Source: an uncultured Chloroflexia bacterium (lineage in GTDB: Bacteria; Chloroflexota; Limnocylindria; Limnocylindrales; CSP1-4). Taken from it: DNA of 64,000 nt. The position numbers and the translations under genes are program-made. Under the pieces are notes generated by a model. That model ran no database searches, was not told where the DNA came from, and saw only the letters and a program-made list of their open reading frames with translations. The stretch lies in assembly GCA_963707215.1 (NCBI GenBank), contig CAVPPB010000003.1, forward strand, positions 480,001 through 544,000. Reading direction: 5' to 3'. Below are positions 3,490 through 18,651 of the stretch, piece by piece; the first letter of the stretch is position 1; the number at the start of each line of letters is the position of its first letter.

Positions 3490-4407
3490 ATGCGATTCGG
3501 GGCCGCGTTCTGGGTCCAGCGGACCGACTGGCCGAGCCTGCGCGATGCGGTGCTCGAGGCCGAGGCGGCCGGCTTCGATTCCCTCTGGATCGACGACCAC
3601 CTCCTGTGCGATGAGGGCGACTGGACCTCGGGCAAGCTCGAGGGCTGGGGCGTCGCCTCGGCACTCGCTTCCCTGACCGCGCGGGCCACGATCGGGCACC
3701 TCGTCGTGGCCAACACCTTCCGCAACCCCGGGATCACGGCCAAGCAGGCCGTGACCCTCGACCACCTGAGCGGCGGGCGAGCCGTGCTGGGCATCGGCGG
3801 CGCCTGGTTCGAGCGCGAGCACGAGGCATTCGGGATCGAATTCGGGAGCGGCTTCGGCGAGCGGCTCGATCGGCTCGCCGAGGCGGTCGAGATCATCAGC
3901 CGGCTCCTGGCCGGCGAGCGCCTCCACTACGACGGACGCTTCTACTTGATGCGAGACGCCCTCTGCGCGCCCGGTCCGATCCAGCCGAAGCTGCCTATCC
4001 TCATCGGTGGTTCCGGACCGAGGAAGACGCTGCCGCTGGTCGCTCGCTATGCCGACCTCTGGAACGCCTATGGCACGCCTGCCGAGCTGGCCGCGAAGGA
4101 CGCTCTGCTGCAGGAACGGTGCGCCGACATCGGGCGGGATCCATCCACGATCGAGCGCATGGTCAACCACAACGTCGTGATCCGCGACGATCCGGCCTCG
4201 GCGGAGGCCGCCTGGGACGAGTGGGTGCGGACCGGGGTCGATGCCGAGGAGCGCGTCCTCATCGGCGGTCCCCCCGTCCGCATCGCGGAGGCCCTCCGTC
4301 CGTACGTCGAGGTCGGCTTCGACCACGTCGTCTGGATCCTCCGCTCCCCTTGGGACCTGGAGACGATCCGTCGCCTGCCAGAGGTCCGGGCCGCCCTCGA
4401 GCCCTGA
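3490..4407 (+). CDS. LLM class (luciferase-like, probably F420-dependent) oxidoreductase
   Basis: AEAAGFDSLWIDDH, NTFRNPG..AKQAVTLDHLSGGR..LGIG.AW.E.EH and P.PI.IGGSG motifs. Confidence 0.88.
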   Translation: MRFGAAFWVQRTDWPSLRDAVLEAEAAGFDSLWIDDHLLCDEGDWTSGKLEGWGVASALASLTARATIGHLVVANTFRNPGITAKQAVTLDHLSGGRAVLGIGGAWFEREHEAFGIEFGSGFGERLDRLAEAVEIISRLLAGERLHYDGRFYLMRDALCAPGPIQPKLPILIGGSGPRKTLPLVARYADLWNAYGTPAELAAKDALLQERCADIGRDPSTIERMVNHNVVIRDDPASAEAAWDEWVRTGVDAEERVLIGGPPVRIAEALRPYVEVGFDHVVWILRSPWDLETIRRLPEVRAALEP

Positions 4408-4551
4408 CGAGCCGCGCGATCTCACGCGGCGGTGCGCCCACGCACCGCCCGCCGGATGCCCCGTCGCCGCCGGGCCATCGGTCCCGGGACGGCGGGCCGT
4501 CCGGCCCGGCCCTACGGGACCCCTCGGCAGCATCCCGCTCCGGTGGTTGCG

Positions 4552-4592
4552 GTGAAGATTTCGAGCGATTTGACGCGCTTGAGCGGGTCGAC
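4552..4592 (+). promoter_or_regulatory. 9-bp-period direct-repeat array (candidate operator)
   Basis: GTGAA 4552, TCGAG 4561, TTGAC 4570, TTGAG 4579, TCGAC 4588: exact 9-nt spacing, in a locally AT-richer patch upstream of the HTH gene. Confidence 0.55.
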
Positions 4593-4620
4593 CGCTCGGC
4601 GGACCGACGCGGAGGCAGCC

Positions 4621-5337
4621 TTGGCGCCGACCGGCCAGCATCCCGCCACCCCCGATCAATGGCTGTCCATCCGCGAGGCGGCCGACCTGATCGGCGTCTC
4701 GCCGGCCACCCTGCGACGCTGGAGCGACGCTGGGGAGATCGAGGCCTTCACGACCCCCGGCGGCCACCGCCGCTTCTCGCGCCGAGCCGTCGAGGCGATG
4801 CTCCCGGCGGCCGAGGGCACCCGGTCTGTCCGCGAGATGGGCGTCACCCCAGAACGACTGGCGCGGATCTACCACCGCCTGGCCAACCGCATGGTCGCCG
4901 ACACACCCTGGGCAAGGGCACTCGACAGCGCGCAGCGAGGGCCCTACCGCGAGCATGGCCGGCGGATCGGCAGCGCGCTCGTCTACTACCTCGATGCTCC
5001 CGACGAAGTGTCGCGGGAGGCGGCCATCGTCATCGCCGAAGAGGCCTGTCGCGAGTACGGCCGGCTGGCGGCCGAGGACGGTTCCGGCCTCGCCGAAGCG
5101 ATCGAGCTGTTCATGCGCTTCCGGATGGTCTTCCTCCGGGAGATGACCTCGCTGGCCCGGCGACACGCCCTCGACATCGTCGAGGCGACGAGCCTCCTCG
5201 AGTCCACCCACCGAGCCTTCGATCGCCTGCTCCATGCGATCCTCGTCGCCTACCAGGCGAACGCGTCCCCGGCCATCGCGGCCTCGCCCACGGACGAGCC
5301 CAGCGTCCCGGCCTCGAACGGGCGGGGTCCGCGATGA
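4621..5337 (+). CDS. Xis/BldC (MerR-like) HTH regulator with all-helical C-terminal domain; first gene of the heme operon
   Basis: WLSIREAADLIGVSPATLRRWSDAG.I....TPGGHRRF; GGAGG at 4611-4615 precedes TTG 4621; stop overlaps the hemA ATG (ATGA). Confidence 0.8.
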   Translation: MAPTGQHPATPDQWLSIREAADLIGVSPATLRRWSDAGEIEAFTTPGGHRRFSRRAVEAMLPAAEGTRSVREMGVTPERLARIYHRLANRMVADTPWARALDSAQRGPYREHGRRIGSALVYYLDAPDEVSREAAIVIAEEACREYGRLAAEDGSGLAEAIELFMRFRMVFLREMTSLARRHALDIVEATSLLESTHRAFDRLLHAILVAYQANASPAIAASPTDEPSVPASNGRGPR

Positions 5338-6545
5338 CCGACCTGCTCGAGCGCCCCGTCGAGGGCGCGACACCCGCCGGGCTGCAGGCCCCCTGGCGGC
5401 GCTCCACCGTCGTGGCCTTCGTGGCCCACGCCCGTGACGTCGCCAGCCCGGATCGGGAAGCCTTCGCCGAGCGTCTGGCCGCCGAGGCCCCGAGCGAGGG
5501 CGCGATCGTCGTCCACACCTGCCACCGCGTCGAGCTCTACGTCGCCCCGGCCGCATGGGGCGAGCGGCCGCTGCCGTCACTGCCCGACGGCACCCGGACG
5601 CTCGACGACGTCGCCGCCGCCCGTCACCTGATCGAGGTCGCCTGCGGGCTCGACAGCGCCGTGATCGGCGAGGACCAGATCCTGCACCAGCTCCGCGAGA
5701 CCGTCGCCGAGCGCCACTCGACCTTCCCCCTTGAGCCGGTCCTCGACCGGCTCTTCCAGGCGGCGCTCCACGCCGGCCGCCAGGCCCACACCTGGTTCAG
5801 TGGCTCCCACAGGTCCCTGGCCGACGTCGCCCTCGACCTCGTCGAGGAGCGGACCGGCGCGCTCCATGACCGTCCGATCCTGGTCGTCGGGGCCGGCCGG
5901 ATGGGGCGCCTTGCCGCCTTCGCGGCGTCGCGCCGCGGCGGCCACGTCCACATCAGCAATCGACACGAGGACCGGGCCGAGGCCCTGGCCCACGACACCG
6001 GCGGTCGCGTGGTGCCGTGGGGAGGCGTCCCCCTCGACCCGGCTCCGGCGGGCATCGTGCTCGCCATCGGCGGCGCATGGCAGGTCGACCGAGAGGGCTT
6101 GACGGAGCTGCTCGAGGGCAGCGCCGTCGTGGTCGACCTGTCATCGCCGGCCGCCATCGGAGACGACGTCCAGGCGGCCCTGGCCGGACGCTACGTGTCC
6201 GTCGACGAGCTGGCCGAGACACCCGAGGCGACGCTCCCCGGCCGCCTGCGTCGACGGCTCGACACGCTCGTGTCGGAGACCGGCCGAGAGTACTGCCAGT
6301 GGCTCCGGAGCCGCGAGAGCGCACCGGCGATCCGGGCGATGGCCGCCGCGGCCGAGGAGCGCCGGCGAGCCGAGGTCGGCTGGCTCCTTCGCCGGCTGCC
6401 CGACCTGGCCGACGATGAGCAGGCGCTCGTCGAGCAGATGACCCACCGACTCGTTGCGAGCCTGCTCCACGCCCCCTTCTCGGCGCTGAACGCCGATGCC
6501 GACGGGGAGCTCGAGCGGGCCGCCCGAGAGCTGTTCGCACTGTGA
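5334..6545 (+). CDS. hemA: glutamyl-tRNA reductase
   Basis: TCHRVELY catalytic Cys, VACGLDSAVIGEDQILHQ, Rossmann VVGAGRMG and C-terminal LLHAP. Confidence 0.9.
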   Translation: MTDLLERPVEGATPAGLQAPWRRSTVVAFVAHARDVASPDREAFAERLAAEAPSEGAIVVHTCHRVELYVAPAAWGERPLPSLPDGTRTLDDVAAARHLIEVACGLDSAVIGEDQILHQLRETVAERHSTFPLEPVLDRLFQAALHAGRQAHTWFSGSHRSLADVALDLVEERTGALHDRPILVVGAGRMGRLAAFAASRRGGHVHISNRHEDRAEALAHDTGGRVVPWGGVPLDPAPAGIVLAIGGAWQVDREGLTELLEGSAVVVDLSSPAAIGDDVQAALAGRYVSVDELAETPEATLPGRLRRRLDTLVSETGREYCQWLRSRESAPAIRAMAAAAEERRRAEVGWLLRRLPDLADDEQALVEQMTHRLVASLLHAPFSALNADADGELERAARELFAL

Positions 6546-8263
6546 CCGCCATGCGTCCCCTCCGCCTCGGCACGCGCGGCAGCGCCCTGGCGCTCGCCCA
6601 GTCTGGCACGGTGGCCGACGCGCTTCGCGCGCTGGGCGCCAAGGTCGAGATCGTCCGCATCCGGACCGAGGGCGACCAGCGGCCGCCGGACACGGCCTGG
6701 GGCGAAGGGGCCTTCGTGGGTGCGCTCGAGCAGGCTCTCCTCGACGGGACGGTCGACCTCGCCGTCCACAGCGCCAAGGACGTCCCGACCACCGAGGACC
6801 CCCGGCTGACCATCGCCGCCTTCCCGGGCCGGGAGGATCCGCGGGACGCCCTGGTGATCGGCGGCGCCGGCGGCTCGCTGGAGTCCCTCCCGGACGGTGC
6901 CAGGGTCGGGACCGACAGTCCCCGCCGATCGGCCTTCCTGCTGGCCCGACGACCGGACCTGCGGCTCCATCCGCTCCACGGCAACGTCGACACGCGGCTC
7001 CGCCGGCTCGCGTCGGGCGAGACCGACGCCCTGGTCCTGGCCGTGGCCGGGCTCACCAGGCTCGGTCTCGCCGAGCGGATCTCGGAGGTCCTCCCGCCTG
7101 AGACCGTGCCGCCGGCCCCCGGTCAAGGCTCGCTGGCGATCCAGTGCCGGTCCGACGACCAGGCGACCCTTGCCTGGGTCCGACGTCTCGACGACGCGGA
7201 CACCCGGGCTGCGGTCGAGGCCGAGCGGACGTTCCTGCGCGCCAGCGGCGGCGGCTGCCGGGCGCCCATCGGCGCGCTGGCCGAGGTCCGCGACGGGACC
7301 CTGACGCTCTCCGCCGGCTCGGCCGGGCCGACCTGGCCGGATGCCGAGCAGCCGGGTGGGCGGGCACCCGTGGTGGCCCGAGGCGAGGTCGCGGGGCCGG
7401 TCGGCGACCGCCTGGCGCTGGCTGCCTCGCTGGCGGTCCGCCTTGCCGACGAGCTCGCGAGCCACCTGCCGCCCGAGCCCGCCAGCCGAGCGCTCCATCG
7501 TGCGGCCCCGCGCGTCCTCGTGACCCGGGCGGTCGAGCAAGCCGGCCCGCTGGTCGCCGCCCTGGAGGAGCGCGGCCTGGACGTGGTCGCCGTCCCGACG
7601 ATCGAGCTCCGCCCCGCGATCCCGGGCGGCGAGCTCGACGACGCCGTCGCAGGCCTCGGCGAGTACCGCTGGGTCGTCGTCACCTCGGCCAACGGTGCCA
7701 GCGCGATCCTCGACGCCGCCGGACGCGTGGGCATCGATCCCGCCGTCGGCCGATGGGCCTCCGTCGGCAGGACCACGACCGCGGTCCTGGCTGGCAGCGG
7801 CATCGAGGTCGCCCTGACGCCGGGCAGGTCAAGCGGCGACGGTCTGGCCGACGAGCTCCCGATCTCGGCCGGCGAGCGCGTCCTGCTGGCCCGGGCCGAC
7901 ATCGCCGACGGGCGCCTGCCGGCGCGGCTGCGCGAACGAGGCGCGGTCGTCGACGAGGTCGTGGCCTACCACACCGTCGAGTCGCCCGAGGCGTCCCGGG
8001 ACCCGCTCCGCCGGGCTCTCGCCGAGGCCCGGTTCGACGCCCTGGTCTTCACCAGCGGATCGACCATCCGCGGTCTCCTGGCGCTCCTCTCACCGCAGGA
8101 GCGGCGCATCGTCCTCCGCGCGCTCGCCTGCTGCATCGGCCCCACCACTGCCCGCGAGGCCCGCGAGGCCGGCTTCGGGCGGATCGTCGAGGCGCCGATG
8201 CAGACCGCCACCGCCCTGGCCGACACGATCGTCGGCGCCGTCCGAGACGAGGTACCCGCATGA
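6542..8263 (+). CDS. hemC: hydroxymethylbilane synthase fused to uroporphyrinogen-III synthase (HemC-HemD)
   Basis: [25 protein letters not shown] and GGGCRAPI (HemC), then [14 protein letters not shown] and VFTSGST (HemD). Confidence 0.92.
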
Positions 8264-9300
8264 GCAGCAAGGTGATGGAGCGGCCCGCGCTCCTCGGTGA
8301 TCAGGCCCATGTCCCGGACCCGGCCCATCGGCTCCGCCGCCTCCGCCGGTCGCCCCAGCTGCGGGCGCTGGTCCGGGAGACGCGACCGGATCCACGCCAG
8401 CTGATCGCTCCCCTGTTCGTGCAGCCCGGACGGGCGGTCCGCGACCCCATCTCCTCGCTTCCTGGCGTCTCCCGGCTCTCCCCGGACGAGGCCGTCGCGG
8501 AGGCCCGTCGGCTTGCCGCGCTGAGGGTCGGCGGGATCATCCTGTTCGGCCTGCCGGAGGGCAAGGACGGCGACGGGAGCGGCGCCTGGATCGCCGATGG
8601 GATCATCCAGGACACGCTGGCCCGCCTCCGCGACGAGGACCCCGACCTGGTCCTCGTCGCCGACACCTGCCTCTGCGAGTACACCGACCACGGCCACTGC
8701 GGACCGCTCCTGGCCGACGGCCGGGTCGACAACGACGCCGCCATCGCCCTGCTGGCCGAGACCGCCGTCTCGCAGGCACGGGCCGGGGCCGACATCGTCG
8801 CGCCGAGCGCGATGATGGACGGTCAGGTGGCGGCCATCCGGGCCGGCCTGGACAGCGCCGGCTTCCCCGACACGGCCATCCTGGCCTATGCCGCCAAGAC
8901 GGCTTCGGCCTTCTACGGTCCGTTCCGCGAGGCGGCCGACTCGGCCCCCGCCTTCGGCGATCGGCGCGGCTACCAGCTGGACCCGGCCAACCGGCGCGAG
9001 GCGATGCGCGAGATGACCGTCGACCTCGACGAGGGCGCCGACGCGCTCCTGGTCAAGCCGGCGATGCCGTCGCTCGACATCCTGGCGGCAGCTCGAGCGC
9101 GCTTCGAGGTCCCGATCGCGGCCTACCAGGTGAGCGGCGAGTACGCCCAGATCGAGGCCGCCGCTCGGCTCGGCTGGATCGACCGCCGCCGGACCCACCT
9201 CGAGGCGCTGACCTCGATCGTCCGGGCCGGGGCGGGGATGGTCATCACCTATGCGGCCGCGGATCTCGCCGCCTGGCTGCGGGACGGGATCGAGGCGTGA
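8260..9300 (+). CDS. hemB: porphobilinogen synthase (Zn-type)
   Basis: [42 protein letters not shown] and AAYQVSGEY. Confidence 0.95.
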
Positions 9301-10583
9301 CCGTGACCACCAACGGCCGGCAGGCGACCCTCGTGGCGGCGGCCGAGGACCTCTTCCCGGGCGGGGTGAACAGCCCGGTCCGCGCGTTCCGCTCGGTGGG
9401 TCGGCGACCGATCGTCCTCGAGGCGGGCTCCGGGCCGAGGGTCAGGGACGCCGACGGGCACTGGTACGTCGACTTCATCGGCGCCTGGGGACCGGCCATC
9501 CTGGGGCACGCCAACCCCGCGGTCATCGAGGCGGTCCGGGCGGCGGCCCTCGACGGGTTCGCCCTCGGGGCGACGTCGCCGCGCGAGGTCGCCCTCGGCG
9601 CGGCCATCCGGTCGGCGATGCCGTCCCTGGAACGGCTCCGGTTCACCTCCTCGGGAACCGAGGCAGCCATGAGCGCGCTTCGGGTCGCGAGGGGGGCCAC
9701 CGGCAGGGACCTCGTCCTCAAGTTCGCCGGCGGCTACCACGGCCACTCCGACAGTCTCCTCGTCGAGGCGGGGTCGGGCGTCGCCACCCTGGCCCTCCCC
9801 GGCAGCGCCGGAGTCCCGGCCGCCATGGCCGCCGGGACCATCGTCGTGGAGTTCAACGACCTCGAGGCGGTCCGAGCGGCCTTCGCGACCTATCCGGGCC
9901 GCATCGCGGCCGTCATCGTCGAGCCGGTGGCGGCGAACGTCGGGGTGATCCCGCCGGCGCCCGGCTTCCTGGAGGGCCTCCGCGAGGTCACGGCGGCGGA
10001 CGGCGCCCTGCTCGTCTTCGACGAGGTCATCACCGGCTTCCGGGTCGCCCACGGCGGGGCGCAGGCCCGCTTCGGCATCAGGCCGGACCTGACCGTCCTC
10101 GGCAAGATCATCGGTGGCGGGATGCCGATCGGGGCCTACGGCGGGCGCCACGAGCTGATGGACCTGGTCGCCCCGGTGGGGCCCGTTTACCAGGCCGGGA
10201 CGCTGTCCGGGCATCCGATCACGATGGCAGCCGGCACGGCCACCCTGGCCATGCTCGACGGCTCCGTCTACGAGCGGCTCGAGGCAAGCGGGGCGAGGCT
10301 GGAGGCGGAGCTCGCCGACGCGGCAGAGACGGCAGGGCGGACGATCGCCATCACTCGCGTCGGGGCGCTCCTCACCGTCTTCTTCCGGCCGACCCGACCC
10401 GTCTCGAGCGCCGAGGCGATGGCCTCCGACCGGGACGCCTTCGCCCGCTTCTTCGGGGCGATGCTGGACCGCGGCATCCTCCTGCCGCCGTCGCCGTTCG
10501 AGGCCTGGTTCATCTCCCTCGCCCATGACGGCGCCGCCCTCGACGAGACGATCGCGGCGGCCCGGGAGGCCTTCGCGGCATGA
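9297..10583 (+). CDS. hemL: glutamate-1-semialdehyde 2,1-aminomutase
   Basis: [46 protein letters not shown] and YQAGTLSG. Confidence 0.95.
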
Positions 10584-11674
10584 GCGGTGACGCGACGATG
10601 GCTGCGCCGATCAGCGGGAGCCCGACCGATCGCCGCGCCGAGCCTCGGGCGACGCGCTACCTCCGGGCCACCCGCCGCGAGCCGGTCGACACGACACCGG
10701 TCTGGTTCATGCGCCAGGCCGGCCGGGCCCTGCCCGAGTTCCGGGCCGTCCGGAAGACCGCCTCGCTGGTCGAGATCACCCGCGACCCGGCCCTCTGCGC
10801 CGAGGTGACCCTGCAGCCGGTCCGTCGGCTGGGGGTCGACGCTGCGATCCTCTTCGCGGACATCACCACCCCGCTGGCCGGGCTCGACGTGGCCTTCGAC
10901 ATCAAGCCCGGGGTGGGCCCGGTCATCGATCGGCCGGTCCGCACCCCGGCCGATCTCGCGGCCCTCCGCCCCTTCGAGCGGGATGCCCTCAAGCCGCTCT
11001 TCGAGGCCATCAGCCTCATCCGCGCCGAGAGCCCGGTCCCCCTCATCGGCTTCGCCGGCGCGCCGTTCACCCTTGCCTGCTACCTGGTCGAAGGCGGTCC
11101 CTCGCGGCAGTTCCTGCGGACCCGGACCCTGATGCGCTCGGAGCCGGCCCTGTGGACCGGGCTGATGGACCGGCTCGTCGCCATGACGATCGAGTACCTG
11201 GGTGCCCAGGTCGAGGCCGGCGCCCAGGCCGTCCAGCTCTTCGACTCCTGGGTCGGCGACCTCGGGCCGCGCGACTACGAGCGCCACGTCGCGCCGTGGA
11301 TGCGGCAGCTCTTCGACGGCCTGGTCCCGCTCGGGGTGCCGACCACCCATTTTGGCGTCGGGACCGCGGGGCTGCTGGCCCTCCAGGCCGCTGCCGGCGG
11401 CGACGTCATCGGGCTCGACTGGCACGTGACGCTGGCGGACGGCTGGGGGCTGGTCGGCGACCGCGCGGTCCAGGGCAACCTCGACCCGTCACTGCTCCTC
11501 GGCCCGTTCGAGGACGTCGCCGAAACGTCGCGCTGGATCCTGGACCAGGCCGCCGGCCGGCCCGGCCACGTCTTCAACCTGGGGCACGGCGTGCTGCCCG
11601 ACACCGACGCCGACGACCTCCGCCGGCTCGTCGACCTCGTCCACGACCACCGCCCGCCAAGGAGCGTCCCATGA
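10580..11674 (+). CDS. hemE: uroporphyrinogen decarboxylase
   Basis: PVWFMRQAGR.LPE, DAAILFADI, LIGFAGAPFT, QGNLDP and HVFNLGHG. Confidence 0.95.
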   Translation: MSGDATMAAPISGSPTDRRAEPRATRYLRATRREPVDTTPVWFMRQAGRALPEFRAVRKTASLVEITRDPALCAEVTLQPVRRLGVDAAILFADITTPLAGLDVAFDIKPGVGPVIDRPVRTPADLAALRPFERDALKPLFEAISLIRAESPVPLIGFAGAPFTLACYLVEGGPSRQFLRTRTLMRSEPALWTGLMDRLVAMTIEYLGAQVEAGAQAVQLFDSWVGDLGPRDYERHVAPWMRQLFDGLVPLGVPTTHFGVGTAGLLALQAAAGGDVIGLDWHVTLADGWGLVGDRAVQGNLDPSLLLGPFEDVAETSRWILDQAAGRPGHVFNLGHGVLPDTDADDLRRLVDLVHDHRPPRSVP

Positions 11675-12627
11675 CCACCGACCCCCGACCGGCCGTGCTC
11701 CTCATGGCCTACGGCAGCCCCGATCGGCTCGACCAGGTCGAGGCGTACTACACCGACATCCGCCGCGGCAACCCGCCCCCACCCGAGCTGCTCGAGGAGC
11801 TCCTCGAGCGATACCGCGCGATCGGTGGCGGCTCGCCGCTCTCCGGGATCGTCGAGCGCCAGCGAGCCGCCCTCGAGGCCGAGCTCGCCCGACGCGGCAG
11901 CCCGGTCCCCGTCTACGCCGGCATGCGCCACATCGAGCCGCGGATCGGGGCGATGGTGGGCCGGATGGTCGACGACGGGATCGACGGGTTCGTGGCCATC
12001 GCCCTGGCACCTCAGCGCTCCTCGAACGCCGCCGGCTACCGCCGGGCTGTCGAGGGGCGACTCGCCGACGCGGAGGGCGGGCCGAGCTACCGGATCGTCG
12101 GATCGTGGCACGACGAGCCCTGCTTCATCGAGGCCCTCGCCGCGGCGACCCGGACGGCGCTCGAGCGGACCGCCGACCCGACGACGGCCCGGGTGATCTT
12201 CACCGCCCACAGCCTGCCGACCCGCGTCGTCGCGGAGGGAGACACCTATCCGCAGGAGCTGGCCCGAACGGCCGCCCTCGTGGCCGATCGGCTCCACCTC
12301 GACCGCTACGAGTTCGCTTTCCAGAGCGCCGGGAGGACCGGCGAGCCCTGGCTCGGTCCGGACCTCCGGGACGAGCTGCGGCGACTCGCCAAGGACGGCG
12401 TCTGCGAGGTCGTCGTCTGCCCGGTGGGTTTCGTGGCCGATCACCTCGAGGTGCTCTACGACATCGACATCGAGGCGCGCGCGGTCGCCGATGAGCTCGG
12501 CCTCCGCCTGGAGCGGGCGCCCTCGATGAACGACGACCCGACCTTCATCGCCGGCCTGGCCGACGTCGCCGAGCGGGCGCTCGGCGAGCTGCCGTCCGGC
12601 ACCACCACGGGCGCCGGGGTCGCCTGA
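11671..12627 (+). CDS. hemH: ferrochelatase (probably coproporphyrin ferrochelatase CpfC)
   Basis: LLMAYGSP, YAGMRH, FTAHSLP, FQSAGRTGEPWLGPD and GFVADHLEVLYDID. Confidence 0.93.
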   Translation: MTTDPRPAVLLMAYGSPDRLDQVEAYYTDIRRGNPPPPELLEELLERYRAIGGGSPLSGIVERQRAALEAELARRGSPVPVYAGMRHIEPRIGAMVGRMVDDGIDGFVAIALAPQRSSNAAGYRRAVEGRLADAEGGPSYRIVGSWHDEPCFIEALAAATRTALERTADPTTARVIFTAHSLPTRVVAEGDTYPQELARTAALVADRLHLDRYEFAFQSAGRTGEPWLGPDLRDELRRLAKDGVCEVVVCPVGFVADHLEVLYDIDIEARAVADELGLRLERAPSMNDDPTFIAGLADVAERALGELPSGTTTGAGVA

Positions 12628-12630
12628 GCC

Positions 12631-13839
12631 ATGACGACAGGAACCAGGCCGACGATGGCCGCGCAGACCGCTCACGTACCGACGCACCCCGGTGGACATC
12701 CCGGTGGTCACCCGGGCGGACATCCGGGCGGGCACCCGGCTGCCGTCGGGGCGGTCAAGCCGGACGGCTACGTCTACGGCCGCGCTCCGATGCTGGTCTA
12801 CTGGGAGACGACCCTCTCCTGCGGCCTCACCTGCCGCCACTGCCGGGCCACGGCGATGCCGGAGCGGAGCCCCGAGGAGCTGACCAGCGAGGAAGGCTTC
12901 GGGCTGCTCGATCGGATCCTGGGCTTCGGGCGTCCCTTCCCCCACGTGGTCTTCACCGGCGGGGATCCCCTTCGGCGCCCGGATCTCGAGACCCTCGTCG
13001 AGGCCGCCACCGAGCGCGGCATCGGCGCCTCGCTGGCGCCGGCGGCGACCGACGAGCTGACGCTGGAGCGGCTGGCCCGCCTGAAGGCGGCCGGCATCCA
13101 GACGATGTCGCTCTCGATCGACGGGTCGGACGCCGAGCGCCACGATGGCTTCCGGGGCGTTCCCGGCACCTTCGACAAGACGCTCCTGGCGGCCCGCTGG
13201 GCCCACGAGGTCGGCTTGCCGCTCCAGATCAACACCCTCATCACCGACGAGACGCTGTCCGACCTGCCGGCGGTCTACGAGCTGATGACGACGCTCGGGA
13301 TCATCCGCTGGAGCCTCTTCTACCTGATCAGCGTCGGCCGGGGTACCGACCTGCGCGAGATCACGGCGGCCGACTCCGAGCGCCTCAACGGCTGGTTCTA
13401 CGACCTGTCCAGGGAGGCCCCGTTCATCATCAAGACGACCGAGGCGACCCATTACCGGCGGGTCGCCATCCGGCGGATGACCGCGGACGGTCTCGACGAG
13501 GACGCCATCGCCGCGACCTCGGTGGGGCGCGGGTTCGGGGTCCGCGACGGCAACGGGATCATGTTCGTGGCTCACGATGGCTGGGTCTACCCGTCCGGCT
13601 TCCTGCCCGTGCGGACCGGCAACGTCCGGACCGACGACATCGTCGAGCTCTATCGGCAGCACCCCGTCTTCACCGGCCTCCGCGACGTCAGCGCCTTCAA
13701 GGGCCGCTGCGGGCGCTGCGAGTACGCCGAGGTCTGCGGCGGGTCGCGGGCCCGGGCCTTCGCCTGGACGGGCGACTACCTCGAGTCCGATCCGCTCTGC
13801 CCGTACGTGCCGCCGTCGGCGCCCGGCGCGGAGCACTGA
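12631..13839 (+). CDS. radical SAM/SPASM protein (TIGR04053/AhbD-like; candidate coproheme decarboxylase)
   Basis: WETTLSCGLTCRHCRA (CxxxCxxC), FTGGDPL and SPASM KGRCGRCEY..VCGGSRARA...GD.LESDPLC; N-terminal HPGG repeats; sits between hemH and hemY. Confidence 0.8.
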   Translation: MTTGTRPTMAAQTAHVPTHPGGHPGGHPGGHPGGHPAAVGAVKPDGYVYGRAPMLVYWETTLSCGLTCRHCRATAMPERSPEELTSEEGFGLLDRILGFGRPFPHVVFTGGDPLRRPDLETLVEAATERGIGASLAPAATDELTLERLARLKAAGIQTMSLSIDGSDAERHDGFRGVPGTFDKTLLAARWAHEVGLPLQINTLITDETLSDLPAVYELMTTLGIIRWSLFYLISVGRGTDLREITAADSERLNGWFYDLSREAPFIIKTTEATHYRRVAIRRMTADGLDEDAIAATSVGRGFGVRDGNGIMFVAHDGWVYPSGFLPVRTGNVRTDDIVELYRQHPVFTGLRDVSAFKGRCGRCEYAEVCGGSRARAFAWTGDYLESDPLCPYVPPSAPGAEH

Positions 13840-13861
13840 GCGGACCGGCCGGGACCCATCG

Positions 13862-15591
13862 ATGACCGTCCTCGTCGTCGGCGGAGGCATCACCGGTCTG
13901 GCGACTGCCCATGCCCTGGGCGCCGCCGGGGTGCCGACGCTGCTCGTCGAGGGGTCCGACCGGCTCGGCGGCAAGGTCCGGACCGACCGGACCGAGGGGT
14001 TCCTGGTCGAGTCCGGGCCGGACTCCTTCATCAGCTATCGGCCGGCCGGCCTGGAGCTGTGTCGCGAGCTCGGCCTGGCCGAGGCGGTCATCCGGCCGGT
14101 CGAGCCGCGGACGGTGACGGTCCGGATCGGCGAGCGGTTCGTTCGCCTGCCCGACGGGATGGGCCTGGTCCTGCCGACCCGGATGCGGCCGTTCGTGACC
14201 AGCCGGATGTTCTCGCCGCTGGAGAAGGCCAGGATGGGCCTGGACCTCGTCCTGCCGCGTCGACTCGACGGCACCGACGTCGCCGTCGGGCCCTTCCTTC
14301 GGGGTCGTCTCGGCGGCGCCCTCGTGGAGCGCCTGGCCGGCCCGCTCATCGGCGGCGTCTACGGCACGCCGATCGACGAGCTCAGTCTCGACGCCGTCGT
14401 CCCCCAGCTCCGCGAGGCCGAGCGCGACCACCGCAGCCTGCTGCTGGCCAGCCTGGCCCAGGGGCGGGCTCGGCGCAGGTCCGGCGCGCCGGCCGGCTCC
14501 CCGTTCGTCAGCCTCGCCGGCGGACTCGGCCAGCTCACCGACGCCCTGGTGGCGACGCTCTGGGACTCGCCCCAGGTGGCCCTTCGCACGGGCACGAGCG
14601 TCGTCGGCCTGGAGCGCTCCGGCGGGCACCTGGCCGCGATCCTGGCCGGCGCCGAGCGGCTGGAGGTGGACGGCGTCGTGCTGGCGTCGCCCGCGGCCGT
14701 CTCGGCCGACCTCGTCGAGGACCTCGCGCCGGACGCAGCGACCCACATCCGCTCGATCCCCCACGGCTCGACCGGCGTGGTGACCGTCGCCTACCGCGCC
14801 GACCAGCTGCCCGGTCCCCTCGTGGGGCACGGCTTCCTGGTCGCCGAGGGCGAGCCGCTCGCCATCAGCGCCTGCACCTGGTCCTCGAACAAGTGGCCGG
14901 ACCGGGCGCCCGAGGGCCACGTCCTCCTGCGGGCCTTCATCGGGTCGCCGGGCGAGCGCCTTCTCGGCCGGCCCGACCGACGACGTGCTGGCGGCCGTCC
15001 GGCGGGACCTCGAGGTGACGATGGGCGTCCACGGGGCAACCGGTCCTCGCCCGCGTGTCGCGCTTCAGCGAGTCGATGCCCCACTACACGGTCGGCCACC
15101 TGGGGCGGGTCGCGGCCGCCGACGACGCCCTCGCTGCAGTGCCGGGCCTGGTTCTGGCCGGCGCCGCCTTCCGGGGCGTCGGCATCCCCGACTGCATCGC
15201 CGGGGGCCGCGGCGCCGCCAGGGCCATCCAGGCCCACCTCGGCGGCGGCGCGACCCGGTCGACGGCCGCGACGGGGACGGGGATCGCCACGGGCGCCAGC
15301 CGCGGCCGCGATGGTGGCACTCCCGACGGCAGAGCCCCGACACCGCTCGACTCCCTGCCCGTGGGCGCCACCGGCACGGTCGCCGTCGTGGCGAGCGCCC
15401 ATCGCGACGAGCTCGCCTCCGAGGGTCTCCGCCCCGGCGTCCGGGTCGGCCTGGAGGCCGCGGCGCCCGTCGGCGGACCGCTGGTGATCTCGGTGGGGCG
15501 GGCTCGCGTCGCCGTGGCCCGCTCGGTCGCCAGGACGGTCCTCGTCGCCCCGAGTGAGCGGATCTCGGACGGCGCCCCGGCCGACCCGTGA
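13862..15591 (+). CDS. hemY: coproporphyrinogen/protoporphyrinogen oxidase (HemY/CgoX) with C-terminal FeoA domain; two apparent frameshifts at ~14975 and ~15035
   Basis: VVGGGITGLA, E..DRLGGK, VESGPDSF and TWSSNKWPDRAP; continues in another frame as DVLAAVRRDL, then SMPHYTVGH...GVGIPDCI, then FeoA-like PLDSLPVG...GLRPGVRV.....PVGGPLVISVG...VAV. Confidence 0.85.
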
Positions 15592-17576
15592 TCGCCCTGC
15601 ACCCCGGCCACCGTCCGCCCGCCGGGGAGGACCAGGCGAGCCCGGATCGCCCACTGTCCATCGCCTTCGTGGGGCGCCCGAACGTCGGCAAATCCACGTT
15701 CGTCTCGCGGGCCGGCGGGCGCTACGTCGAGACGGTCAACGCGCCAGGCACGACCGTCACCGCCGAGCGGGTCCCGGTCCGGCTGGGCGGTCAGGCCGTG
15801 GAGCTCGTGGACCTGCCCGGAACCCGGTCGCTCGTCGACACGCCGGCCGGCAGCGATCCGTTCTGGGCCCAGCTGCTGGGGACCCAGCCCGACGCCATCG
15901 TGGTCGTCGCCGACGCCGGCGACCTGGCCCGGCACCTGCCGCTGGTGCTGGCCTGCCGGGATCTCGGCCTGCCGGTCGTGCTCGCCGCGAACCTCGCCGA
16001 CGAGGCTGCCGAGGCGGGCATCGAGCTCGACGAGACGGCGCTCTCGCAGCTGCTCGTGGCGCCGGTCCACCTGACGGTCGGGCGGACCGGGCACGGGGTC
16101 GACGCGGTCATGGCCGACGCCGTGCGCCTGGCCTCCCGGCGTCGAGCCGTCCGCGAGGGCACCGCCGAGCCACGGGGTACCGTCCCGGCCCAGCCGTACC
16201 CGCCGTCGCTCGACGCACACCTGGCGGCGACCGCCCGTGACCTGGGCCACAGCCACTCGCTGGGAGCCGCGACGGTCGATGCGACCAGCATGGAGCCCTT
16301 CGTCGCCGATCGGACGATCTCGCCACGAGGTGCGGCCTCGATCCGCCTCGCCGACCTGTTGGAGCCGGAGCGCTGGCGGATCGGCGCCGAGTGGGCCGAC
16401 CGCGTGGAGTCGCGACGCGCCGTACGGGCACCCCGGCGCGAGGCCCTGACCCGACTCGCAACGGTGCCATGGCCCGGGCTGCCGCTCTTCCTCGCCGTCG
16501 CCCTCGGCTCGTTCGCCGCCATGGTCGTCGTGGGGGGCTGGCTCTCGGCCCTCCTGGCGGAGGTCTGGGCGGCGACGATCTCGCCGCTGCTGACCACGAT
16601 CATCGGGACGCTGGTGCCCCTGCCGGCGCTCGCCTCGGCGCTCGAGTGGGCGCTCGACGGCGGGCTCCTGGCGATGGTCTCGGTCGGCATCCCCTACGTG
16701 CTCGTCTTCTACGTGATCCTGGCCGCCCTCGAGGACTCCGGCTACCTGACCAGCGCGGCCGTCCTCCTCGACCGCGTCTTCAACGTCCTGGGCCTGCCCG
16801 GCCGAGCGGCGATCCCGCTCCTGAGCGCGGCCGGATGCAACGTGCCGGCCGTCTACGGCACCCGGGTGCTCCCGACGCAGCGCGAACGGCTCCTCGGCGG
16901 CTTCCTGGTCACCCTGACTCCCTGCTCCGCCCGGTCGGCCGTGGTCATCGCCGCCCTGGCCCCGGTCGCGGGGATCGGCGCGGCCTTCGCCGCCTTCGCC
17001 GTGGTGCTGGCGCTCACGCTGGGGGCCGGCCTGGCCGCCAACGCGGTCGTGCCCGGACGCCAACCGGCCCTCGTCCTCGAGCTGGCACCCCTCCGGACGC
17101 CGGTGCCGGCCAACGTCGCCCGCAAAGCCTGGCGGCGCTTCCGCTCCTTCGTCCTCGTCGCCACGCCGATCATGGTCGTCGGCTCGTTCGTCGTCGGGCT
17201 GCTCTACGAGAGCGGCCTGTGGGCAGACCTCGCGACGCTGGTCGAGCCCGTCACGATGGGCCTGCTGGGGCTGCCGGCGATCGCCGGGATCGCCATCGCC
17301 TTCGCCTTCCTGCGCAAGGAGCTGGCGCTCCAGTTGCTGGTCGCGCTCGCCATCGTCCAGTACGGCGCCGCCATGGCCGAGCCGGGCGCCTTCCTCTCGC
17401 CGGCCCAGCTGTTCGTCTTCGCGATCGTCACGTGCGTGTCGATCCCCTGCGCGGCGACCCTGGCGGCGCTGGCCGGCGAGTTCGGACGCCGCACCGCACT
17501 CGCCATGAGCGCCGCGACCGTGGGGCTGGCCCTCGGGGCCGGCGCCATCGTGGCCCGCGTCCTCGCGATCGCCTGA
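15588..17576 (+). CDS. feoB: ferrous iron transporter B
   Basis: G1 GRPNVGKS, N.PGTT, DLPG and NLAD; membrane part LEDSGYL, GCNVPA, PCSAR and LRKE. Confidence 0.92.
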   Translation: MIALHPGHRPPAGEDQASPDRPLSIAFVGRPNVGKSTFVSRAGGRYVETVNAPGTTVTAERVPVRLGGQAVELVDLPGTRSLVDTPAGSDPFWAQLLGTQPDAIVVVADAGDLARHLPLVLACRDLGLPVVLAANLADEAAEAGIELDETALSQLLVAPVHLTVGRTGHGVDAVMADAVRLASRRRAVREGTAEPRGTVPAQPYPPSLDAHLAATARDLGHSHSLGAATVDATSMEPFVADRTISPRGAASIRLADLLEPERWRIGAEWADRVESRRAVRAPRREALTRLATVPWPGLPLFLAVALGSFAAMVVVGGWLSALLAEVWAATISPLLTTIIGTLVPLPALASALEWALDGGLLAMVSVGIPYVLVFYVILAALEDSGYLTSAAVLLDRVFNVLGLPGRAAIPLLSAAGCNVPAVYGTRVLPTQRERLLGGFLVTLTPCSARSAVVIAALAPVAGIGAAFAAFAVVLALTLGAGLAANAVVPGRQPALVLELAPLRTPVPANVARKAWRRFRSFVLVATPIMVVGSFVVGLLYESGLWADLATLVEPVTMGLLGLPAIAGIAIAFAFLRKELALQLLVALAIVQYGAAMAEPGAFLSPAQLFVFAIVTCVSIPCAATLAALAGEFGRRTALAMSAATVGLALGAGAIVARVLAIA

Positions 17577-17652
17577 CCCCGGCGACCGACCGCGCCACGG
17601 GTCACCCCCGCACCACCGGACGCCCCCGTCCACGAGCCACCGCTACGGCCGC

Positions 17653-18651
17653 TCAGGCCTCCGGATCGAGAGCCGCCCGGGACCAGAGCTCGGCCGCGAT
17701 GAGCTCCACGACGGTGACCTCGACGAGGGTCCGGACCAGCGGGTCGTCGGCGCCGGGCAGGGGGATGACCAGGGCCGCCCCGTCGACCGGCGGCCCGACG
17801 ACCAGGACCTCGCCCGAACGCGAGCGCACCGTCTCGACCAACGACCGGTCGTAGGCCGTGCCCGAGAGCAGGACCATCCGGGCGCCCGGCAGAGCCGTGT
17901 AGACGCCGACGTGCGCCCAGTCGCCGGCATCCCAGGCCGTCGCCGCAAGGCGAGGGCCCTCGCGGAGCATCAGGGCCGCCTGCTCGGCGGCTCCTGGCCG
18001 CGAGGCATCGCCAACGACGTGGATCGTCTCGGCTCCATCGAGGAGATCGGCGGCCGGACCGAGCCAGCCCGCCGAGCCCGCCGTGAGCCGCTCGAGGGCG
18101 TCGACGGCCGGGCGGAGGGAGGCCACGGTCGGATCGCTGCCGGCCACCCGACCTGCCGCCAGGAGCAGCGTCGCAAGCGTCGCCAGATGGGTCCGGCAGG
18201 CGACCCCCCCTGCTTCGGGCCCGGCCAGCAGCGGCAGGACGGCATCGGCGGCATCGGCCAGCCGGGAGGTCGGCTGCTCGGTGACCGCGATGACCGGCGA
18301 GGTACCACGGTGCCGCTCGGCCGCGGCCACGGTCTCAGCGGTCCCGCCCGAGGCCGAGATGGCGACGACGATCCGGCGCGGATCCGGCGGAGCGGGCGTC
18401 GGCGTCGACGCCCACTCGACCAGGACCTCGCCGCCGCCAGCCACGATCCGGGCGGCGACCGTCAGGGCGGCGAACCGCGACGAGCCCATCCCGACGAACA
18501 ACAGTGGCGGTCGGTCGCGCCCCGCCAGGACCGACTCGAGCATCGTCGACGGCTCACCGTGCCCCTCCCAGGCATCGAGCAGGCGGGCCAGCGCGGACGG
18601 CTCGTCGAGAACGTCGCGGCGCAGGGCCGCGGCCCGGTCGATGGCCCTCAC
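17653..18651 (-). CDS. SIS-domain protein (GlmS C-terminal/FrlB-like sugar-phosphate isomerase, deaminase or deglycase)
   Basis: DVLDEP.AL, FVGMGSSRFAA, VVAISASGGTAETV, LLAGPEAGGVACRT and ALMLREGP. Confidence 0.8.
   Translation of the reverse strand: MRAIDRAAALRRDVLDEPSALARLLDAWEGHGEPSTMLESVLAGRDRPPLLFVGMGSSRFAALTVAARIVAGGGEVLVEWASTPTPAPPDPRRIVVAISASGGTAETVAAAERHRGTSPVIAVTEQPTSRLADAADAVLPLLAGPEAGGVACRTHLATLATLLLAAGRVAGSDPTVASLRPAVDALERLTAGSAGWLGPAADLLDGAETIHVVGDASRPGAAEQAALMLREGPRLAATAWDAGDWAHVGVYTALPGARMVLLSGTAYDRSLVETVRSRSGEVLVVGPPVDGAALVIPLPGADDPLVRTLVEVTVVELIAAELWSRAALDPEA

Follow-up and report, generated by a model that had tools for sequence, protein, structure and literature searches.

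The systems closest to the protein discussed here have been described from two sides, one of them DNA-binding and the other sensory. In a 64,000-nt stretch of DNA from an uncultured Chloroflexota bacterium (the window), we analysed the product of the open reading frame (ORF) at 4621-5337, here called X, a putative one-component regulator with an N-terminal winged helix-turn-helix (HTH) head and a C-terminal globin-fold domain, whose gene heads a chain of heme-synthesis (hem) genes. On the DNA-binding side, BldC of Streptomyces shares with X both the winged-HTH fold and the sequence family, its Arg30 and His46 having counterparts in R33 and H49 of X. The available text of PMC5859096 describes BldC as binding 9-bp AATTXXXX(C) direct repeats head-to-tail, with His46 in the narrowed AT-rich minor groove and Arg30 reading a G, and the repeats found 5' of X look alike in being short, AT-rich and direct. 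That said, BldC stands alone as a domain of 68 residues, lacks an effector domain and serves a large developmental regulon, whereas X carries a globin-fold domain of 150 residues and apparently has one local target.

CarH binds direct repeats as an oligomer. Together with LitR and the MerR-HTH photocobilins it shows a layout related to that of X, in which a flexible linker joins an HTH head to a tetrapyrrole-type sensor, and the hidden Markov model (HMM) matches of X include photocobilin 8jbs (7.8e-9) and CarH (1.7e-3). CarH and LitR differ from X, however, as X has neither the B12-binding Rossmann module nor the four-helix module, and nothing in its context suggests light-regulated genes.

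On the sensory side, the best fold matches of X are pXO2-61 of Bacillus anthracis and the N-terminal domains of RsbR (B. subtilis) and MabR (Mycobacterium tuberculosis), which, like X, have no proximal or distal histidine. In RsbR-type sensor globins the F helix is absent or unobserved and the last two helices form the dimer, again as predicted for X; in particular, PMC11617747, as far as its accessible part goes, presents N-MabR as a non-heme 2-on-2 globin sensor with an unobserved helix F and a dimer formed in this way. MabR resembles X also in placing a globin-fold sensor on a pathway-specific transcription factor. In contrast, the output modules are different (STAS in RsbR, none in pXO2-61, a GGDEF-like domain and a PucR HTH in MabR), the domain order is the reverse of that in X, there is no significant sequence similarity, and the contexts are stress, sporulation and lipid synthesis rather than heme synthesis. 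The globin-coupled sensors DosC, AfGcHK, BpeGReg and HemAT have the same overall fold (Z 8.7-10.9) and the same dimeric sensor logic, but they ligate heme by a proximal histidine on helix F, while X has neither a conserved histidine nor a predicted F helix. By analogy, X would work like a hybrid of a BldC/CarH head and an RsbR/MabR-type sensor.

X and the hem operon

Our favoured explanation casts X as a one-component regulator that acts locally, on the hem operon and on its own gene, with the direct repeats as its operator and a tetrapyrrole as the feedback signal. Taken as a whole, this is an explanation towards which we lean somewhat; of its parts, local regulation of the hem operon by X is, in our judgement, quite probable, and action through the direct repeats is reasonably likely. 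The basis is computational: the folds of the two domains, the synteny with hem genes, a set of conserved repeats that is unique in the genome, and a predicted dimer. In particular, we read X as a regulator of the hem operon because it combines a globin/RsbR-type fold with orthologues that are linked to hem genes.

A sequence-only reading of the window had placed X at the head of an operon of about 13 kb and had noted an ATGA overlap with hemA. Both are borne out, as the hem chain runs from the start of X at 4621 to the end of feoB at 17576, a span of 12.96 kb, and the ATG of hemA overlaps the TGA stop of X at 5334-5337. The same reading had proposed gene-neighbourhood analysis as a check on hem linkage. 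In 75 of the 80 best loci, hemA, hemCD or hemB lies directly downstream of X on the same strand, the exceptions being L026, L035, L069, L070 and L028, the last of which sits on a contig that ends 1 base after X. These nearest loci come from metagenome-assembled genomes, mainly of Limnocylindria and other Chloroflexota, with 12 from Actinomycetota and a few under other phylum labels. A further sample of 20 distant Chloroflexota loci (25-45% identity), hand-chosen from different families, includes 9 that are directly hem-linked, 2 with a hem gene nearby (L086, L091) and 9 without one; neighbours at the unlinked loci are miscellaneous, for example PBP1, PucC with a Ser/Thr kinase, and peptidases. 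Overall, the hem context is kept in 84 of 100 loci, and in a quick maximum-likelihood tree 79 of the 83 rows in one clade, which has 96% support, are hem-linked.

A word-index search returned 1,241 homologous proteins at E <= 0.001 and an exhaustive HMMER search 555 representatives at E <= 1e-10, and at the latter threshold 181 of 401 sampled Chloroflexota genomes hold a homologue. The relatives are labelled in databases only as 'helix-turn-helix domain-containing protein' or 'excisionase family DNA binding protein', and NCBIfam has no specific model for the family. In the quick tree, the Actinomycetota rows are nested inside the window's subclade, a placement which hints that X may have been transferred together with hemA into Actinomycetota that make multiheme cytochromes. 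At the one annotated Actinomycetota locus (L013, 5172-13280) X and hemA lie inside a ResB-CcsA-thioredoxin-multiheme cytochrome c cluster, with a NapC/NirT-like cytochrome and followed by DsbD/HMA/cupredoxin, a context that is again heme-related. Other Actinomycetota loci have TGCCACAAGG-like stretches just 5' of X, taken here as the end of a similar cytochrome gene. Several Limnocylindria genomes (G088, G253, G397) carry two or three X paralogues, some of them as adjacent divergent pairs (G088:C90, G253:C1).

The DNA-binding head and the upstream repeats

The head had been called an Xis/BldC-type HTH from the letters alone, and this assignment is confirmed by family models and by fold. In addition to the HTH_17 match, it is recognised by Pfam MerR (2.9e-10) and by the excisionase domain model TIGR01764 (40.3 bits, over the cut-off of 28.8), an HMM alignment to BldC gives 8.4e-10, and a Foldseek search of the Protein Data Bank (PDB) puts BldC on top with a template modelling (TM) score of 0.83 and 38% identity, in a row that is itself under the significance threshold. 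In VIA-align the head superposes on BldC (6amk) with Z 7.9 and a root-mean-square deviation (rmsd) of 1.6 over 52 residues, and on the Pukovnik Xis with Z 8.0 and rmsd 1.8 over 53. R33 and H49, which align with the two DNA-contacting residues of BldC, are both invariant in our 34-sequence alignment. That said, X is not a strict member of the BldC family, since it scores below the cut-off of the NCBIfam BldC subfamily (NF033787, 48.2 against 77 bits) and has an effector domain. Nor is it a classical MerR protein: the wing is followed by a weak linker (62-76) and a globin-like domain rather than by a coiled coil, and the candidate sites are direct repeats rather than a palindrome. Two relatives, P0174 (623 aa) and P0197 (417 aa), have seven to eight BldC/MerR-type HTH units in tandem on a single chain, which would be a covalent version of the BldC head-to-tail multimer.

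Just 5' of X, most hem-linked Chloroflexota loci have a TAGATTT-like unit in 2-4 copies about 10 bp apart, and we consider these repeats a credible operator candidate for X because BldC binds similar repeats and R33 and H49 are invariant. In the 3.26-Mb assembly of the window's genome (84.8% complete), GATTT-N5-GATTT occurs once over both strands, at X, against a chance expectation of about 0.12 by our own estimate from base composition; this single occurrence therefore argues against a large regulon. Allowing up to 5 substitutions, TAGATTTGAGTAGGTTT is matched upstream of X at 47 of 80 loci, at a distance of 18-30 nt from the start codon, with GTGAGCGAGTCG about 20 nt before the match. The DNA just 5' of X is kept far beyond what one would expect from the 40-55% identity of the proteins. 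The distant loci L084, L085, L088, L089, L095, L097 and L098 likewise have 2-4 repeats, among them hem-linked loci of other families such as L088, L089 and L095.

We also built a position weight matrix (PWM) of 10 nt from 66 half-sites, with the window's whole subclade excluded from training, and counted a locus as passing if the 90 nt 5' of X beat at least 99% of control windows from the same locus (empirical p <= 0.01). Among held-out loci, 25 of 38 hem-linked ones pass, versus 2 of 13 unlinked ones (L069, L102). With this foreign-clade matrix, the window's site ranks 4th genome-wide among tandem pairs and scores above all 482 control windows from the first 20 kb of the window. Of the three tandem sites that rank higher, one lies within an MscS gene, another between genes in unannotated DNA and the third ahead of an HTH-TOBE/modA locus, and as possible further regulon members none of the three is heme-related.

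At L029 (about 9930-10000), four exact tandem copies of the 13-nt GTGAGGTTCGGGC stand just 5' of the X homologue, the next gene being hemB and not hemA; the array may be a variant operator. The window's genome holds a second regulator, with an HTH_17/MerR head and a TOBE (molybdate-type) domain, beside a ModA-like binding protein (L106, 2115-2537, minus strand; G000:C3:1516914-1517336), and AT-rich tandem motifs about 26-60 nt 5' of its gene start are among the top PWM matches. This suggests that a BldC-type head with a small sensor is a recurring design of local regulators in the window's organism.

The sensor domain

The AlphaFold2 model of X, computed from the 34-sequence alignment (mean predicted local distance difference test, pLDDT, 81.3; predicted TM score 0.60), consists of the winged HTH, a linker at 62-76 (pLDDT about 61) and five long helices predicted at 77-94, 103-125, 129-152, 157-181 and 186-215, in a block with pLDDT mostly 81-97. 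The sequence-only reading had described an all-helical C-terminal domain, a set of histidine contexts and a motif with the letters EYGRLAAEDGSGLAEAI, and had noted that it lacks the B12-binding motif of CarH and LitR. These descriptions hold: the model has no beta strand in this domain, YHRL, REHG, RRHA, STH and LLH are found at residues 84-87, 110-113, 180-183, 195-197 and 203-205 and the motif at 145-161, and a Pfam scan at E <= 1 detects no family over the domain and no B12-binding family. X as a B12 photoregulator of the CarH/LitR type is accordingly rejected, with neither PF02310 nor PF02607 at E <= 1 and an all-helical C-terminal domain.

It had further been proposed that the domain resembles globin or RsbRD_N-type sensors and that AlphaFold followed by Foldseek would be a way to check this. 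Foldseek against the PDB gives no match at E <= 0.001, pXO2-61 and the BpeGReg globin being sub-threshold rows for the tail of X, whereas VIA-align of the model points to a sensor globin. Helical models often reach Z of about 13 through chance arrangement, and it is against this caveat that one should read the comparison of X residues 66-217 with 48,161 representative chains, where the matches are pXO2-61 (3pmc; Z 14.2, rmsd 2.2, 132 of 132 residues), the MabR N-domain (12.2), MtR (3zta; 11.6), the DosC globin (10.9), RsbR-N (2bnl; 10.5), AfGcHK (10.5), BpeGReg (10.4) and the photocobilin globin-like domain (9.6). We accept the sensor-globin fold because nearly all of the top matches are of one fold class that spans the whole domain. 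In this sense, the model supports a C-terminal domain with a sensor-globin fold of the RsbR, pXO2-61 and N-MabR kind.

An ESM Atlas search returned only clusters of X's own kind, with scores of at most 0.85, and a search with the domain among longer proteins gave no fused form at E <= 1e-5, which is weak evidence. In the representative library, P0198 (625 aa) joins an X-like N-terminus to a complete HemA in one predicted ORF; this may be a doubtful fusion or a frameshift, since around FLRFR its globin-like part appears degenerate.

Two copies of X residues 66-220 are predicted to form a homodimer, with an ipSAE of 0.43 in the median run versus 0.00 for the best of three controls, a contact agreement of at least 97% and a partner pLDDT of at least 87. 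Two hemes rode along unscored, so that the job is uninformative on heme. Of the calibration proteins, 20 of the 30 whose solved structure is a pair reached this mark, as did 1 of the 23 known as single chains; these counts are only roughly valid, since the calibration lacked the custom alignment and the riding ligand. The predicted interface is symmetric and made of helices 157-181 and 186-215 (interface residues 157-212). That said, the pass may reflect likeness to known structures, because similar globin-sensor dimers have been solved and N-MabR has the same kind of interface.

Among 85 hem-linked homologues aligned to X, G113, G147 and R168 are invariant (85/85), and W97 (84), D201 (84), F164 (83), F167 (83) and R110 (82) nearly so; Y146 is kept in 76 and Y84 in 75, and many arginines at 75-90%. 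Conserved residues beyond the predicted dimer interface include W97, R110, Y146, F164, F167, R168 and F171. His-His pairs occupy positions 134/135 and 172/173 in roughly half of the 85 members; the second of these lies within the predicted dimer interface and does not occur in the window's X.

Proposed mechanism

For X we infer that it binds DNA, which way it regulates and what its ligand is, along the following lines. The BldC/Xis-type head would recognise the AT-rich direct repeats just 5' of its own start codon, while the C-terminal domain would dimerise via its last two helices, such that dimers or higher oligomers could hold at least two heads on the 2-4 repeats. X would most likely repress itself together with the translationally coupled hem genes, repression being the likeliest direction because in most relatives a -10-like TAGATT coincides with the repeats, which directly adjoin the start codon. 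A small ligand in the globin pocket would then tune the occupancy of the repeats. Our best guess is heme or a porphyrin intermediate, acting as a co-repressor in a feedback loop and bound without a classical proximal histidine, since in the hem context tetrapyrrole feedback is the most economical signal; bilin-binding globin-like domains, which in photocobilins sit on the same kind of HTH, would be a precedent for this step.

A more ambitious proposal, which we ourselves consider unlikely, would make X the founder of a family of transcription factors that sense tetrapyrroles, in which an RsbR-like globin without a proximal histidine binds heme, coproheme or coproporphyrin and exerts end-product feedback on the pathway. 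Contacts to the tetrapyrrole would then come from R110, R168, W97, Y146, F164, F167 and F171, and possibly from Tyr84 or His/Tyr211, and the ligand would drive a BldC-style cooperative occupation of the direct repeats.

Points against and rival explanations

Several observations weigh against our favoured explanation, and most of them concern the ligand. The sequence-only reading had suggested that the domain binds heme or a porphyrin and had pointed to its histidines, but none of those listed is conserved: at position 112 (REHG) the 85 hem-linked members carry Arg more often (46) than His (24), the other four positions are not predominantly His, and the domain has no invariant His or Cys at all. 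The best-kept histidine, at position 211 (69/85), is a tyrosine in the window's X. Helices 129-152 and 157-181 are joined in the model by a 4-residue turn, and therefore no separate F helix is predicted that could carry a proximal histidine. The nearest solved relatives, pXO2-61, N-MabR and RsbR, are non-heme, and two of them have links to fatty acids or to lipid metabolism, namely pXO2-61 and MabR, which regulates the synthesis of mycolic acids. Likewise, of the two halves of the globin/RsbRD_N comparison only the fold is established and membership of the sequence family is not, because Pfam RsbRD_N (PF14361) matches 2 of 34 members with a best E of 0.073 and leaves the window's X unmatched, although some homologues carry precomputed PF14361 labels. 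As for the DNA side, a symmetric dimer would have no obvious fit to direct repeats unless linker 62-76 is flexible, part of the repeat conservation could be promoter rather than operator, and the PWM fails at ten hem-linked Actinomycetota loci, where X directly follows the cytochrome gene with no spacer, and at L020, L033 and L103, which have no repeats. To these one should add the nine of 20 distant homologues without hem linkage. Canonical heme ligation by X is thus not supported, and X as a heme globin-coupled sensor, lacking both an invariant histidine and anything but a short turn at the place of helix F, is rejected. Because there is no axial ligand and the nearest relatives bind lipids, we hold the chance that the ligand of X is a tetrapyrrole clearly below even.

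The rival that survives best, though we regard it as doubtful, agrees that X regulates the hem operon and differs in the signal: the globin domain would sense a non-tetrapyrrole such as a fatty acid or an acyl-CoA, or would be a ligand-free oligomerisation module. The top fold matches, pXO2-61, N-MabR, MtR and RsbR-N, with Z from 14.2 to 10.5, are all non-heme globins, and the RsbR-globin class, according to what is accessible of PMC8717448, is without distal and proximal histidines and potentially binds fatty acids, in keeping with the missing invariant His or Cys in X. What is more, R110, R168, F164, W97, Y146, G113 and G147 are also kept in 12-13 of 13 homologues without hem linkage, and they may therefore be residues of the fold or of a general pocket rather than hem-specific ones. 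On the other hand, fatty acids have no physiological logic for a heme operon, the dominant conserved context is one of hem and cytochrome c biogenesis genes, and other globin-fold sensors, namely the photocobilin domain that binds biliverdin, hold bilins without a classical His-Fe bond (PMC10979010, in its accessible part).

An improbable second rival takes the upstream element mainly as the operon promoter of a leaderless or near-leaderless transcript and lets X act elsewhere, for example as a pleiotropic factor like BldC (described as such in the available text of PMC5859096). The repeats do include a -10-like TAGATT, and for this reason operator and promoter probably overlap. In a large Limnocylindria clade, a -35-like GTGAGC or TTGAGC is followed after 18 nt by TAGATT and 10-13 nt later by the start codon, which leaves no room for a Shine-Dalgarno sequence. 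L057 and about 45 related loci of this clade often start X with TTG under this arrangement, and at L057 itself (7110-7156) a TAG stop within the element leaves the adjacent TTG as the sole start that keeps the HTH, again with no Shine-Dalgarno room; the letters suggest that the transcript in this clade may be leaderless or near-leaderless and begin with a non-AUG codon. However, a promoter has no need of an AT-rich unit in 2-4 copies with a period of about 10 bp (as in L088, L089 and L095). The repeats also accompany X across families amid otherwise unalignable DNA and are missing 5' of 11 of 13 unlinked homologues, the exact GATTT-N5-GATTT is unique in the genome, and in the window's own clade the repeats lie 35-66 nt 5' of a start codon that does have a Shine-Dalgarno sequence.

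Finally, a reading of X as an excisionase or recombination directionality factor from a phage or an integrative and conjugative element, standing beside hemA by chance, is hardly credible in spite of the TIGR01764 score and the Pukovnik Xis fold: Xis proteins have no counterpart of the 150-residue sensor domain, 84 of 100 loci keep the hem context, X is translationally coupled to hemA, and GC content is even over the region (0.72-0.78), although no search aimed at an integrase was made.

The gene chain and its surroundings

X begins with TTG, and we place its start at 4621 rather than at an alternative in-frame GTG at 4432, which would give a protein of 301 residues, because homologues begin within a few codons of 4621 and a GGAGG precedes it. 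From X to hemH, six successive junctions overlap by 4 nt (ATGA or GTGA); beyond hemH the gaps are 3, 22 and 100 nt. Coordinates are collected in Table 1.

Table 1. Features of X and of the hem gene chain in the window (nucleotide positions, strand, and basis of the assignment or remark)
Feature	Position	Strand	Basis or remark
Candidate operator, direct repeats AGATTTCGAG, CGATTTGACG, CGCTTGAGCG (third degenerate), 10-bp period	4555-4585 (letters of the repeats 4556-4585)	+	pattern count in the assembly, PWM
Shine-Dalgarno-like GGAGG	4611-4615	+	5 nt 5' of the TTG start of X; direct sequence reading
Gene X, putative one-component regulator, HTH and globin-fold domain	4621-5337	+	238 aa
BldC/Xis-type winged HTH, residues 14-61	4660-4803	+	Pfam HTH_17, 1.1e-12
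Five-helix sensor-globin-like domain, residues 77-216	4849-5268	+	model pLDDT, VIA-align
hemA, glutamyl-tRNA reductase	5334-6545	+	Pfam GlutR_N, Shikimate_DH, GlutR_dimer
hemC-hemD fusion, porphobilinogen deaminase and uroporphyrinogen-III synthase	6542-8263	+	GTGA overlap with hemA
hemB, 5-aminolevulinic acid (ALA) dehydratase	8260-9300	+	
hemL, class-III aminotransferase	9297-10583	+	glutamate-1-semialdehyde (GSA) aminomutase by context
hemE, uroporphyrinogen decarboxylase	10580-11674	+	
hemH, ferrochelatase	11671-12627	+	
Radical SAM/SPASM protein, family TIGR04053, AhbD-related	12631-13839	+	TIGR04053, 449.7 bits (cut-off 395)
hemY-type oxidase, protoporphyrinogen/coproporphyrinogen oxidase family	13862-15487	+	
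feoB, ferrous iron transporter	15588-17576	+	100 nt after hemY; Pfam FeoB_N, Gate, FeoB_C

Some of the genes fall under the cut-offs of their TIGR models, namely hemA with TIGR01035 (7.6e-52, 176.6 bits, cut-off 209.55) and feoB with TIGR00437 (293.6 bits, cut-off 315.65). The radical SAM gene scores 298 bits with the AhbD heme b synthase model, under its cut-off of 500, and ChdC/HemQ (PF06778) is not found in the window's genome at its 84.8% completeness; the pathway could be of the coproporphyrin type, with an AhbD-like enzyme carrying out its last step independently of oxygen.

A consensus scan of 4300-18300 gave no terminator-like site and no sigma-70 promoter, and -35 and -10 hexamers could not be placed by eye around 4545-4610 either, such that the promoter of the window's operon was not located. 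No Rfam family matched 4300-4750 at E <= 1, and among the 20 sequencing runs listed for 4300-6600 there is no RNA run; each is a DNA metagenome that contains no more than 0.23 of the words sampled.

The gene 5' of X, at 3490-4407, encodes an F420-dependent oxidoreductase of the luciferase-like monooxygenase (LLM) class (TIGR03560, 226.8 bits, just under the cut-off of 231.4). We place it outside the conserved unit because it adjoins X in only 11 of the 80 nearest loci, on either strand.

Implications

In the literature that we searched, no paper describes a regulator of the HTH-globin type with hem linkage or a hem-operon regulator in Chloroflexota, and the conserved direct-repeat candidate operator 5' of X is, as a proposal from sequence comparison, new in this analysis. 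Control of heme synthesis outside proteobacteria and firmicutes is poorly known, and the family of X provides a concrete and testable candidate with a predicted operator, widespread in Chloroflexota and present in some Actinomycetota beside cytochrome c biogenesis genes. Its combination of modules is new, in that BldC-type heads, which bind direct repeats, are joined to non-heme sensor globins, for which few ligands are known. If the ligand were indeed a tetrapyrrole, the chemistry of the globin fold would be widened and a compact biosensor part for heme or porphyrins would be gained. Moreover, if X and its relatives were to form a tetrapyrrole-sensing family, X would be the first dedicated regulator of heme biosynthesis described in Chloroflexota.

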